DNA of 39,091 nucleotides from a virus. Taxonomy: Duplodnaviria > Caudoviricetes. This document shows, in pieces, positions 1,196 to 25,958 of the stretch. The stretch is taken from IMG/VR virus record IMGVR_UViG_3300048890_000088, positions 1 through 39,091 of that record; one strand, written 5' to 3'. The notes below the pieces were generated by a model. That model saw only the letters and a program-made list of their open reading frames with translations, was not told the DNA's origin and did no database searches. The first letter of the stretch is position 1, and each line of letters begins with the position of its first letter. A program made the translations under genes and the position numbers.

Positions 1196-1537
1196 CTATC
1201 GCGTAAGCCAGGCACACCGAACCATGGTGATCTTACTGACAAGGGCCTCCCACCCCGGGGGGCCGTTTGCTTCGTCAATCTCCCCTATTTCAATCTTGAC
1301 GAGCTCCTCCACGTCGAAGGTGAACCAGCGCCTTCGGTACTCCTCACGGAAGCTCTCGTCGGTGACCCATGCCACCAGCCCCCATCCTACTTCACCGTCT
1401 ACGAGCCCCCGCCCTAGGCAATACGGCTTCACTTCGAAGGGACCCCAATCGTATGAGAACCGCAACAGACGACGCTCTCTGATTGCCTGACAGAGCAAGT
1501 CGAGCGTGGGCGGATCCGCGGGGCGCTCGGGCCTCAC
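1196..1537 (-). CDS. stand-alone WYL-domain protein (~113 aa)
   Basis: GTG overlaps the upstream TGA. AIRERRLLRFSY...EVKPYCL...WGLVAW...RRWFTFDVEEL matches the WYL pattern (AI..r..l.f.Y; v.Py.l; wYL.a; r.Fr.dri). Confidence 0.7.
   Translation of the reverse strand: MRPERPADPPTLDLLCQAIRERRLLRFSYDWGPFEVKPYCLGRGLVDGEVGWGLVAWVTDESFREEYRRRWFTFDVEELVKIEIGEIDEANGPPGWEALVSKITMVRCAWLTR
1244..1272 (+). terminator. putative intrinsic terminator of the late/lysis transcript
   Basis: GGCCTCCC-ACCCC-GGGGGGCC hairpin followed by GTTTGCTT. Confidence 0.4.
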
Positions 1538-2008: not shown

Positions 2009-2251
2009 TTACCGCCCCCCCCTGATGTGGGCCGAGATGACTTTGATGTAGCTGGGGTGGTCCGCGAAGATGACTCGGAGGTGCCGCCCTTTCACTTCCC
2101 CGTCGACTTGCCACCGCTGGGAGACGGCGGTCCAGAGGTTCTTGGTTGGGGTGGCGGTGTGGAGCAGCCACCGGATGTCCGCGCGGTTGATGCCGCGCTC
2201 CTTGAGCTTCTTGGCGGTGTGGTCACCGATGAGGATTGGCTTGGTCGTCAT
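2009..2251 (-). CDS. DUF4258-family putative RNase toxin (BECR/RelE-like fold)
   Basis: HTAKKLKERGINRADI...GRHLRVIF...IKVISA; directly upstream of DUF2283. Confidence 0.75.
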   Translation of the reverse strand: MTTKPILIGDHTAKKLKERGINRADIRWLLHTATPTKNLWTAVSQRWQVDGEVKGRHLRVIFADHPSYIKVISAHIRGGR

Positions 2252-2257
2252 GGATTG

Positions 2258-2285
2258 AATATAAGCGATAGCGTTTATATGTCAA
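2258..2285 (-). promoter_or_regulatory. sigma70-type promoter of the toxin operon with an operator-like inverted repeat; probably leaderless mRNA
   Basis: TTGACA-16-TATATT, then 6 nt to the ATG; TATAAGCG-ATAG-CGTTTATA at 2260-2279. Confidence 0.7.
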
Positions 2286-2298
2286 TACCCCTAGAATA

Positions 2299-2402
2299 GG
2301 GGGTGTACGGCCGTTGGCCCCGAGAATAGCGGCTCAGCCGACCTCCCCCGGCTTTTGTTCGGGAACGGCCGGACGGCATCGTGCCGAACTCCGGATACCC
2401 CC
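2299..2402 (+). ncRNA. candidate structured small RNA
   Basis: Nested stems GGGGGTGT/ATACCCCC, CGGCCGTT/AACGGCCG, CCCGAG/TTCGGG, AGCCG/CGGCT and CGGCA/TGCCG; -10 TAGAAT at 2292-2297. Confidence 0.45.
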
Positions 2403-2430
2403 ACCCTTGACGCCCTCCCCTTCGAGGCCC

Positions 2431-2469
2431 AAGATAAAGGCGCGCGGCGGCAACTTGCCACCACGCGCC
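2431..2469 (-). terminator. intrinsic terminator downstream of tRNA-Thr
   Basis: Minus strand GGCGCGTGGTGGCAA-G-TTGCCGCCGCGCGCC (G-U pairs favour this strand), followed by TTTATCTT. Confidence 0.75.
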
Positions 2470-2482
2470 CCAGGTTAGTATG

Positions 2483-2556
2483 TGCCCCCGGCGGGATTTG
2501 AACCCGCATCCTTCACTTTACGAGAGTGGCGCTCGATCCAATCGAGCTGCGGGGGC
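2483..2556 (-). tRNA. tRNA-Thr(CGT), atypical D-arm, CCA not encoded
   Basis: Acceptor GCCCCCG/CGGGGGC; D-stem GCTC/GAGC; anticodon loop CT-CGT-AA; T-arm GCGGG-TTCAAAT-CCCGC. Confidence 0.8.
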
Positions 2557-2605
2557 GGGGAGGACCAGGGAGTCGCGCAAACGTCTCCCTGATCCAACTA
2601 CAGGA

Positions 2606-2620
2606 CTACGGCGGCTTCAT
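2606..2620 (-). other. SD-led minigene Met-Lys-Pro-Pro-stop
   Basis: AAAGGAGGT (2627-2635), 6-nt spacer, ATG AAG CCG CCG TAG. Confidence 0.5.
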
Positions 2621-2987
2621 CGTCGTACCTCCTTTCAGGTTCCAGGAGTCACCGCCGGACCGTCCCCACGGTCATCCCGGCGGTGATTCCGCTTTCAGGT
2701 ATCTGTTACCTGACACTCTATCTATGTCGGTCTGGACTGGCGGTCAAGCATCAAGAGTGCTAACCGAAAATTCCCCTTCTCCCTCTTGACGTGAGCAGAA
2801 CAGGCCAACTACCGGCAATTACCCGAACATTTGACCCCCTCGACTGCCACCATCCTAAGCTCACGATGGACACGTTCCCACGCAACGTTCGGTCTAACCC
2901 AGCAACGGTGCGGCGGATTGGGGTTTAGGTCACAAAAGTGACATGGCCCCCGATCTCGGGGGCCATAGGGTCCAACTGGGCAGGGTA

Positions 2988-3209
2988 TCAGCGCCCGGGA
3001 GGCACCATCACCGCGACGCGGTACATAACCCAGCCCAAACCGAGCGAGATCAGCCCTGGAACCAGAAAGACACCAACGTTCACGAGCAAACCGAAACCTC
3101 CGACCCCGCCCCGCAGGTCGCCGTTCCCTTGCATCCCTGCAAGGTTGCCCACACCCAAGATGACCAGCACCATCCCCATTAGCAGGAAGCCTGCGGCCGC
3201 GTAGCGCAT
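2988..3209 (-). CDS. small two-TM membrane protein
   Basis: MRYAAAGFLLMGMVLVILGV...GLLVNVGVFLVPGLISLGLGWVMY; SD GGAGAG. Confidence 0.7.
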   Translation of the reverse strand: MRYAAAGFLLMGMVLVILGVGNLAGMQGNGDLRGGVGGFGLLVNVGVFLVPGLISLGLGWVMYRVAVMVPPGR

Positions 3210-3222
3210 TCGGTCTCTCCGT

Positions 3223-3543
3223 TCAGCGAAGTGGGTGCTGGAGGTCCGCCGCTTCGGCGGCCGCGCGGGCGAACCCATCCGGATCGTCCGGGCCCAGCTC
3301 GAGCTGGTACTCGTCGACCGGGACGCCGGGCTGACCCGGCTCGAGGAGGACCAGCCATTGGCGGCGCTCGCCGTCGAGGGAACGCAACTCCCCCTCGACC
3401 GGATACCAGACTCCGGCCGCGAGGGGGTAGGGACAGGCTCCGACCGCCTCCGATCGGAGGCGCACGGTCGTCGGATAGAGATGCCCTGGCACGGGAATGC
3501 CACCGCCATCGACCAGGCGGAGGTGCTCCGGGTTCAGGGTCAC
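3223..3543 (-). CDS. hypothetical protein
   Basis: GTG overlaps the lipoprotein stop; protein-like composition. Confidence 0.55.
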   Translation of the reverse strand: MTLNPEHLRLVDGGGIPVPGHLYPTTVRLRSEAVGACPYPLAAGVWYPVEGELRSLDGERRQWLVLLEPGQPGVPVDEYQLELGPDDPDGFARAAAEAADLQHPLR

Positions 3544-4598
3544 GGCGCGATGACCAGTGTGCCGCTGACAGGCGTCGCGGTCCAGCCAGGCTGGAGCGCG
3601 GTGTAGTGCCACCCTGCCCCATCGCGGCTCGCGAGCGCGAGCTCCATCCAGCCCCATGTCGGCAGCCACATCCAGATATGGCGCGGATCCTCGAGGTCGG
3701 AGCAGCCGCCGACGGTCGTCCCAACCCCGCCGCTCGAGAGCGTGTCGACGGCCGCGGTCGACCGAATGACCCAGAGCGCAGTGGCGTGATAGATCATTGC
3801 AGGAGCGCTCGCGCCATCACAGGACTGCACCCCGGAGGTGATGTAGGCCCCGCTCACGCTCCAGGTGGTGTCCCCGATCGTCGCCTGCCAGGTGTAGGTG
3901 CCCTTTGGAGCATGGACCATCAGCGTCAGCGTATCGGAGCCGAGCACGAAGCGTTGCCGCCCGGGCACGGAGGCCGTCGCCCGCCAGGATCCCGCGACCA
4001 GCTGCGCGCCGAGGCTATCGATCCCGGCGACGCCGGCCACGGCGATCGGGTTGTTGAAAGCGTCGTGCGCGAAGACTGGCAGGGTGACCACCGAGTCGCC
4101 GGTCACGCGGAGCGTGTCGACCGCGAAGCCCTGGGCGGTGATCGGCCCTGGGATCCCCGTTGCGCAGACCTGTGCAAACGTCAGGGGCTCCCCGGTCTCC
4201 TGATCGACGGCGCGGGCCTCGAGGCACTGCGCGCCGGCCGTCGGACCCAGCGTCCAGAGCTCCTGCGCCCGCCCAATCGAGTCGGTGAGCGCCGCCCCTG
4301 CGAAGACATGCCCACCACCCGAGACGACCACGAAATTCACGAGCTGCCCTGGCACGGGGACCGGCGTACCGCCGGCCGCCTCGGCGCGCGAGCCAGTCGG
4401 CCCGGGGGTCGTATCGAGGACCTGGATGCGGATCGCGGTCGGGAGCTGCTGGCCGACCGTATCGACCTGGCCACTCCCCTGCAGGATCTCGACCCGTGAG
4501 GCCACCAGCTTCGGAGGAGTCGTCGAGGGCCCGGTGGAATCTGAACCGCAGCCGGCGAGGAGCGCGGCCGCCAAGACGAAGAGGTATCGGTGGGTCAT
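3540..4598 (-). CDS. Ig-like (Big-type) surface lipoprotein
   Basis: Lipobox LLAG-C; ILQGSGQVDTVGQQLPTAIRIQV...VPGQLVNFVV..GGG...TDSIGRAQELWTLG is an Ig-like repeat. Confidence 0.8.
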   Translation of the reverse strand: MTHRYLFVLAAALLAGCGSDSTGPSTTPPKLVASRVEILQGSGQVDTVGQQLPTAIRIQVLDTTPGPTGSRAEAAGGTPVPVPGQLVNFVVVSGGGHVFAGAALTDSIGRAQELWTLGPTAGAQCLEARAVDQETGEPLTFAQVCATGIPGPITAQGFAVDTLRVTGDSVVTLPVFAHDAFNNPIAVAGVAGIDSLGAQLVAGSWRATASVPGRQRFVLGSDTLTLMVHAPKGTYTWQATIGDTTWSVSGAYITSGVQSCDGASAPAMIYHATALWVIRSTAAVDTLSSGGVGTTVGGCSDLEDPRHIWMWLPTWGWMELALASRDGAGWHYTALQPGWTATPVSGTLVIAP

Positions 4599-25784: not shown

Positions 25785-25857
25785 GCACGATGGGCCCGGG
25801 CTCCCCGCCCGGGTCCGTCGGTTGTACTCCCCTGGCGGGCGGCTCCCCAGGGGACAT

Positions 25858-25932
25858 CGCAGGGTAGCGCAGCCCGGTCAGCGCGCCGGATTCATAATCC
25901 GGAGGTCGGGGGTTCGAATCCCTCCCCTGCTA
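25858..25932 (+). tRNA. tRNA-Met(CAT), initiator-like, CCA not encoded
   Basis: CGCAGGG/CCCTGCT with a 1:72 mismatch; D-loop AGCCCGGTCA; anticodon CAT at 25893-25895; TTCGAAT. Confidence 0.9.
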
Positions 25933-25958
25933 TTGCAGTCCCCAACCCCAGGAGCGTT

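Follow-up and report, generated by a model that had tools for sequence, protein, structure and literature searches.

A CreT-like proline-codon minigene fused to an irregular tRNA on a temperate phage: a candidate RNA toxin

Very short ORFs can be toxic, as is known from the lambda bar minigenes, which are promoter-mutant minigenes and not a conserved hairpin-capped RNA gene. In Pseudomonas aeruginosa, the toxin CreT needs a Shine-Dalgarno (SD) sequence, a 15-nt ORF ending in Pro-Pro-stop and a downstream hairpin, and it tolerates synonymous proline codons as well as a 15-nt spacer before the hairpin, according to the accessible part of a 2026 preprint (10.64898/2026.06.02.729485). There it is also described as bacteriostatic and as blocking translation in vitro. 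In the same part, the authors regard the proline-codon toxin as apparently specific to the type I-F CRISPR loci of P. aeruginosa and leave its mechanism open; the accessible part of a further report (10.1101/2024.10.29.618823) mentions CreT in a Pseudomonas setting only. The haloarchaeal CreT is presented, in the excerpts available (PMC8501985), as a mini-ORF with two identical consecutive codons and a downstream stem-loop, which requires efficient initiation and sequesters a rare tRNA through rare codons; its activity is lost on synonymous change and it is repressed by CreA-Cascade. A Pro-Pro at the C terminus arrests termination and leaves peptidyl-tRNA-Pro in the P site, as stated in excerpts on the YbeL-PP arrest (PMC3834316). 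Excerpts on irregular allo-tRNAs and irregular-tRNA polycistrons (PMC5389517) report that G3-U70 gives Ala charging and that missense allo-tRNAs kill E. coli and are found near toxin-antitoxin (TA) systems and transposons.

The window, that is the whole stretch of 39,091 nucleotides analysed here, is a complete 39 kb virus record and represents a temperate tailed phage, rich in GC, that encodes integrase, replication, head and tail functions. Two soil DNA runs contain it; run X1 is identical over the stretch and possibly the one from which the record derives, with a 21-nt joint that is too short for use, and run X2 has no coverage at 2473-2700. No RNA run was found among the listed sequencing runs holding the window. 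A lipoprotein encoded at 3540-4598 has a Gemmatimonadetes protein as its sole named relative (E 3.7e-9, one of 22 matches), which is a weak hint at the phage host. A second tRNA, Met(CAT), lies at 25857-25933 (+) directly after the major capsid gene. The proline-codon unit sits in a leftward accessory region, upstream of a DUF4258/DUF2283-HTH pair and a WYL-like ORF, and the features of unit and neighbours are as follows.

2747-2719 (-), weak promoter candidate TTGACC-17-TAGATA; the sequence is present, its function is presumed
2720-2715 (-), alternative -10 sequence TAGAGT overlapping the promoter candidate
2695..2713 (-), perfect 7-bp palindrome TCAGGTA-N5-TACCTGA, by arm check
2645..2690 (-), 5' GC-rich hairpin just before the SD (z = -3.2)
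2627..2636 (-), extended and perfect SD GAAAGGAGGT, 6 nt before the ATG
2606..2620 (-), 15-nt mini-ORF ATG AAG CCG CCG TAG (MKPP-stop)
2562..2595 (-), 3' GC-rich hairpin (z = -3.7)
2482..2556 (-), irregular tRNA-Thr(CGU), 55 bits
2431..2469 (-), hairpin (arms 2439-2469) followed by the T-rich tail TTTATCTT
2009..2251 (-), DUF4258 protein, by a 72% identical homolog that carries PF14076
1534..1956 (-), DUF2283 + HTH_17 protein (Pfam E 1.3e-11 and 4e-6)
1196-1513 (-), small WYL-like ORF (weak WYL match, E 1.7e-4)

On the minus strand, the unit is thus a row of 5' hairpin, perfect SD, MKPP-stop, 3' hairpin and irregular tRNA-Thr(CGU). The three hairpins that a sequence-only reading had placed at 2562-2595, 2645-2690 and 2695-2713 have the arms it gave them, and the whole leader (2557-2760, minus strand) folds at z = -3.2; Rfam gave no match for the leader upstream of the tRNA. 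The same reading had pointed to GAAAGGAGGT-6 nt-ATG AAG CCG CCG TAG about 50 nt before the tRNA. This arrangement (2636-2606) is present, ends 49 nt before the tRNA and had no match in 100 shuffles, and it is the sole AGGAGG+ATG frame of fewer than ten codons in the window. When the frame is read through its TAG, the next stop follows 30 codons on, within the tRNA, and the TAG position is kept as a stop in relatives; therefore, MKPP-stop is not a longer gene broken by a recent nonsense mutation. CCG is the commonest proline codon of the phage, with 176 of the 299 proline codons in ten large genes. The word ACCTGAAAG does occur twice on the minus strand (2632-2640 and 2692-2700; two matches against 0.09 expected for a word chosen post hoc), of which the first on that strand is a hairpin arm and the second the leading part of the SD, and the pair is not kept in whole-unit relatives. 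The promoter proposed at 2747-2719 exists as a sequence, but the promoter scan made no call there. Hairpin and T-rich tail at 2431-2469 are likely the terminator of the unit, although a terminator scan made no call at this position. A structured stretch on the plus strand (2860-2972, z = -2.8), divergent from the unit, holds a 20-codon frame and shows no strong pairing to the mini-ORF.

The neighbouring DUF4258 and DUF2283-HTH_17 proteins are, judged by their domains, likely a protein TA pair with DUF4258 as the toxin half and DUF2283-HTH_17 as the antitoxin. The pair has a strong promoter of its own in the promoter scan (TTGACA-16-TATATT, 2285-2258). Within the region 1534-2302, an inverted repeat at 2259-2280 overlaps this promoter and is likely an autoregulatory operator; a further palindrome lies beside the pair at 2288-2302. 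The relatives of the WYL-like ORF, five matches, are all unnamed.

Compared by described anatomy in the accessible text, CreT1 and CreT2 resemble the unit in the strong SD, the 15-nt Pro-Pro-stop mini-ORF, the GC-rich 3' hairpin and the use of common codons, so that SD spacing, Pro-Pro-stop ORF and 3' hairpin of this toxin type are all found in the window. Unlike them, the unit is carried by a phage without a cas gene or CreA, it has an additional 5' hairpin and a fused irregular tRNA, and its relatives are found next to IS1/IS1595 transposases or within type I-E loci. No Cas match was obtained among the window ORFs scanned, which were a part of all ORFs. CRISPR repeat families had no match at gathering score in the window and none at E <= 10 in 2200-3000. 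A search for a creA mini-array gave no fitting direct repeat, a result that leaves room for very degenerate repeats or a host-encoded guide. The unit is not a member of CreTA because these scans showed neither a cas gene nor a CRISPR repeat on the phage. With the haloarchaeal CreT, as far as it is described in the excerpts (PMC8501985), it shares the mini-ORF with two identical consecutive codons, the downstream stem-loop and the strong initiation signal that efficient initiation needs, but not the rare codons, CCG being common in this phage. The YbeL-PP arrest, in the part of the source available (PMC3834316), is likewise a Pro-Pro-stop with peptidyl-tRNA-Pro, but it is a reporter construct and not a conserved hairpin-capped gene.

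Alignment with the window extends over the whole unit, 5' hairpin through tRNA, in four loci (L501, L540, L559 and L525). These whole-unit relatives keep Pro-Pro-stop with synonymous changes, and compensatory change was seen in 19 of 39 predicted pairs, namely, twelve in the tRNA and seven in the two hairpins (three in 2645-2690 and four in 2562-2595). GenBank phages showed similarity to the tRNA part only and not to the whole unit, and plasmids gave no whole-unit match and two tRNA-only matches. A virus scan for SD-MKPP-stop, the check on related phages that the sequence-only reading had suggested, gave two loci, of which one was false (TGG) and the other, L002, lies 9 nt before an odd tRNA. 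A codon-free virus scan for an SD, a four-codon frame with stop and a tRNA found 136 loci whose peptides were scattered; only two contigs had x-P-P, L002 and L095 (MPPP-stop before a tRNA), and these share flanking elements. In the same material, the groups L005-L010 and L079-L088 are phage clades with a conserved SD + MEGD-stop and SD + MSMF-stop, respectively, before a tRNA.

The pattern GAAAGGAGG-N4-8-ATG-NNN-CCN-CCN-TAR was found at 61 metagenome loci. All four proline codons occur at both positions, with CCA and CCG dominating, and this free use of codons therefore points to selection on the peptide. In control scans, CCN was replaced by any of CCN, CGN, GCN and GGN (16 dipeptides), and the input was the complete set of 19 virus loci together with 120 of some 230 genome loci. 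After matches with an early stop had been dropped and the rest clustered by flanks, the PP set comprised 81 loci (55 clusters) and the set of other dipeptides 115 loci (95 clusters). Counted by cluster, no dipeptide preceded the stop as often as PP (4 of 14 clusters in viruses and 15 of 100 in genomes), although about six of the 15 genome PP clusters are to be expected by chance. By locus, PP reached 16 of 119 (p = 0.003) and was surpassed by GP with 21 because of one MNGP-stop repeat family. This family of SD + MNGP-stop, another Pro-stop minigene, comprises 16 loci (L588-L590, L603, L606, L607, L609, L611, L616, L647, L653, L654, L658, L680, L695 and L696), is multi-copy in Planctomycetota MAGs, occurs once in an Ignavibacteriaceae MAG and is often followed by a repeat.

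PP and control clusters were then compared for their surroundings, in collections that are imperfectly matched (61 of the 81 PP loci are metagenomic, 101 of the 115 control loci genomic): hairpins with z < -2 were found downstream in 24/55 PP versus 14/94 control clusters (p = 5e-4) and upstream in 23/54 versus 7/94 (p = 3e-7), a downstream tRNA by default ARAGORN in 6/55 versus 0/95 (p = 0.002), and a downstream tRNA or T-loop motif in 9/55 versus 0/95 (p = 8e-5). Within one collection, the tRNA link amounted to 2/4 versus 0/10 clusters in viruses and 1/15 versus 0/85 in genomes. The M-x-P-P-stop observation is right and not due to chance. Three further candidates were dropped. A scan with a weaker SD returned mostly chance matches (tRNA downstream in 2 of 95 distinct matches, 120 sampled of about 250), TCAAGT..ACTTGA failed as a family signature (x-P-P-stop after 0 of 103 distinct sampled matches), and a GCAATC hairpin scan recovered L095 alone among 120 sampled. 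In 401 Gemmatimonadota genomes, the pattern was absent as a true stop (two TGG matches, three control matches).

As regards genomic setting, IS1-family transposase ORFs flank eight loci and IS1595-family ORFs six (Pfam matches, extended by similarity), and these counts, like those of cas and integrase neighbours, are minima because the flanks span only 0.3-1.5 kb and the ORFs scanned were a selection (79, then 89 of 114). Eight MKPP-stop loci form a group adjoining an integrase-like ORF. In L554, SD + M-x-P-P-stop lies between cas3 and cas8e of a type I-E system, and in L509/L512 upstream of a type I-E cas8e, which is an intergenic slot like that of CreT; by sequence, these loci would extend proline-codon CreT beyond type I-F. 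Two degenerate repeat-like hairpins, noted by eye upstream of the L554 match, are likely CreA. In L528 (448-483), SD + MHPP-stop is a spacer between CRISPR-DR10-like repeats of a 7-repeat array; either a CRISPR spacer there matches an element of this kind, or the match is due to chance. The L510 group is flanked by an Mrr_N/DUF5343-like protein; none of the 12 loci found through that protein had the minigene, and it is therefore not required as a partner.

The window tRNA has C8 and G14 in place of U8 and A14, a D arm able to form 7 bp, a C-A atop the anticodon stem, no encoded CCA, a 7/5 acceptor/T branch and a 5-nt variable loop. The UGG triplet of its D loop was considered as a proline triplet and is merely the usual G18-G19. 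Its G1-C72, C2-G71, G35 and U36 point to cognate Thr charging by tRNA identity rules, and therefore no mistranslation is expected from it. By its body it groups with relatives carrying ACU and GCU, and it reads ACG. Sixteen relatives have a tRNA or tRNA-like structure after the stop (15 by script, with L555/L566 counted once, and L542 by eye). In ten of them, on two unrelated bodies, the loop of the anticodon arm carries the proline triplet UGG; the other six have ACU, ACU, GCU, GCU, CGC and GUC. Four of the UGG bodies (L532, L533, L542 and L597) have a long arm and an invariant TGG between paired stems; in a search of 301 genomes, the L532 tRNA matched ordinary tRNA-Leu(UAG) and tRNA-Leu(CAA) best, and the T arm of L542 is shortened. 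LeuRS ignores the anticodon. The remaining six (L510, L515, L521, L523, L553 and L544) all have G3-U70, carry TGG without variation in their central arm, lack a D stem, branch 7/5 (L510 group) and gave no Rfam match; their anticodon loop was placed by eye, the top pick of the script being different. The L521 unit was absent from 401 Actinomycetota genomes. L555 combines a G3-U70 body with GUC, and the ACU/GCU tRNAs of L501, L540 and L525 have, by the corresponding rules for Arg, Arg-type bodies. An Arg-type GCU tRNA also occurs in L709/L710 (1112-1186), divergent from an Mrr_N-like gene and without a minigene; since, in addition, most PP loci are without a tRNA, the two modules are separable. 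Upstream of the minigene and within irregular-tRNA clusters, L518 (917-988), L555 (862-934) and L002 (245-318) hold minimal tmRNA-like tRNA domains (G3-U70, no mRNA part), with weak tmRNA matches for L518 and L555; L002 also contains a tRNA-Sec-like gene.

Allo-tRNAs and irregular-tRNA polycistrons resemble the window relatives: they too are irregular, frequently of missense type, and lie close to TA systems and transposons (PMC5389517, in the part available). The window tRNA differs from them with its 7/5 branch and short loop instead of an 8/4 or 9/3 branch and a long variable arm. The available part of that paper describes neither an upstream SD-minigene nor a pairing of one with a proline anticodon; its Figure S6 may include some of the loci described here.

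We consider it rather probable, by analogy with CreT, that the unit is a proline-codon RNA toxin that jams ribosomes, here without the CRISPR control under which such toxins have been known. This reading is favoured because SD, 15-nt Pro-Pro-stop ORF and 3' hairpin match the three needs of CreT and because a C-terminal Pro-Pro arrests termination. Transcription from about 2713 to 2431 would give a single RNA of about 280 nt, which RNase P would cut at the 5' end of the tRNA to free an RNA of 135-157 nt that hairpins at both ends would protect; the 3' hairpin likely stabilises the mini-ORF RNA, as the CreT analogy suggests. Ribosomes would load on the mini-ORF and stall at Pro-Pro-stop, and the stalling would keep ribosomes and proline tRNA occupied until growth stops. 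In the accessory region, beside the protein TA pair, the unit could serve as an abortive-defence or maintenance module. In the lysogen, it would have to be repressed, most likely at the promoter. The palindrome at 2695-2713, which has no good second copy anywhere in the window, may be the first hairpin of the RNA or, in the DNA, an operator that covers the likely start site, and repression at this candidate operator is our best guess for the off-state. No antisense partner of the mini-ORF stood out within the window. Occlusion of the SD (about 10.5 kcal/mol in the window) was rejected as a conserved off-switch (10.2 in PP loci versus 9.4 in controls, p = 0.065); it could also weaken ribosome loading. 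From the sequence-only reading, the ribosome-loading, stalling Pro-Pro-stop minigene joined to an odd tRNA is borne out by conservation and by the tested P. aeruginosa analogue, and its 'ribosome sponge' fits best, as a toxin; for a translation sensor or a control on tRNA processing, no positive evidence emerged.

The fused tRNA might instead be the antidote of an RNA-only TA system whose toxin is the mini-ORF, which is unlikely at the window locus and less so for the UGG relatives. If a proline anticodon were combined with Leu or Ala charging, the tRNA would decode the proline codons, escape the stall and replace sequestered tRNA-Pro. The UGG triplet on two unrelated bodies in ten of 16 tRNA-linked relatives, one set long-armed with L532 nearest to tRNA-Leu and the other with G3-U70 in six of six, a pair that gives Ala charging (PMC5389517, in part), hints at such a recoding antidote. 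Non-synonymous changes of the proline codons kill CreT toxicity and other CreTs are relieved by extra cognate tRNA, according to the accessible parts of both sources (10.64898/2026.06.02.729485; PMC8501985). The anticodon of the window tRNA is not UGG but CGU, which differs at one base from CGG, the triplet that would read the unit's own CCG CCG codons, and does not itself read CCG; on this reading, the window would hold a copy that has drifted or is tuned differently. The six relatives with other anticodons, the missing D stem and Rfam match and by-eye loop of the G3-U70 group, the shortened T arm of L542 and the GCU tRNA without a minigene in L709/L710 also speak against it, and a co-transcribed toxin and antidote would need uncoupling.

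The jamming of ribosomes need not be toxic if the minigene is a cis element whose stalled ribosome shields the transcript or controls when the tRNA is released, depending on the levels of EF-P, release factor or Pro-tRNA. Leaders with proline codons, for instance mgtL/mgtP, offer a parallel. The tRNAs of L002 and L525, which begin only 7-9 nt after the stop and hence within the ribosome footprint, and the failure to find an antitoxin in the window agree with this. We nevertheless regard it as decidedly unlikely: 46 of 55 PP clusters have no downstream tRNA or T-loop, so that the ORF does not need the tRNA, a hairpin and 49 nt separate mini-ORF and tRNA in the window, and the same anatomy is toxic in CreT (10.64898/2026.06.02.729485, in part).

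Rather than excluding a toxic minigene, a two-toxin cassette would extend it, with mini-ORF and mistranslating tRNA both toxic under one repressed promoter. Many fused tRNAs do resemble missense suppressors (L555 with G3-U70/GUC; L501, L540 and L525 with Arg-type bodies and ACU/GCU), and the missense allo-tRNAs that kill E. coli also adjoin TA systems and transposons (PMC5389517, in part). The window tRNA, however, with its presumed cognate Thr charging, makes this quite improbable here. Chance, an incidental Pro-Pro reading of CCTCC in an anti-SD hairpin (the CCT CCG of L002 and L095 can pair with GGAGG, and about one in 16 control-type matches is PP by chance) or the 16S-tail mimic once proposed for the plus strand is highly improbable and largely refuted by the CCG CCG codons of the window, the dominance of CCA and CCG across the 61 loci, the empty shuffles and the whole-unit homologs, the mimic being merely the reverse complement of the SD on a strand where no promoter was found.

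In its boldest form, which we hold only tentatively and consider doubtful, the toxin reading would widen to a CRISPR-independent, all-RNA TA class that is widespread on phages and IS1/IS1595 elements. One transcript would yield a ribosome-trapping M-x-P-P-stop RNA and a chimeric tRNA that, with a proline anticodon on a Leu or Ala body in most tRNA-linked copies found, acts as antitoxin by deliberate mistranslation; the CRISPR-associated CreT would be a domesticated offshoot.

The CreT1/2 toxin and irregular tRNAs on mobile DNA were known already; new is a CreT-like proline-codon unit on a phage, fused to a tRNA and without cas or CRISPR. In the literature outside subscription journals, no report was found of a phage-borne, transposase-linked, non-CRISPR or tRNA-fused proline-codon toxin. 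With a coding sequence of 15 nt, such a toxin is missed by gene callers. If the reading is true, the proline-codon toxin would become a general mobile RNA toxin, with a form capped by hairpins and fused to a tRNA that occurs on a phage, next to transposases and within type I-E loci, and the mobile form would point to the origin of CreT. It would also give orphan irregular tRNAs on mobile DNA a testable function. The repeated pairing with Leu- or Ala-type tRNAs bearing a proline anticodon makes a new antitoxin logic directly testable, and the natural tRNA variants would help to ask whether ribosomes or tRNA-Pro are trapped by the toxin.
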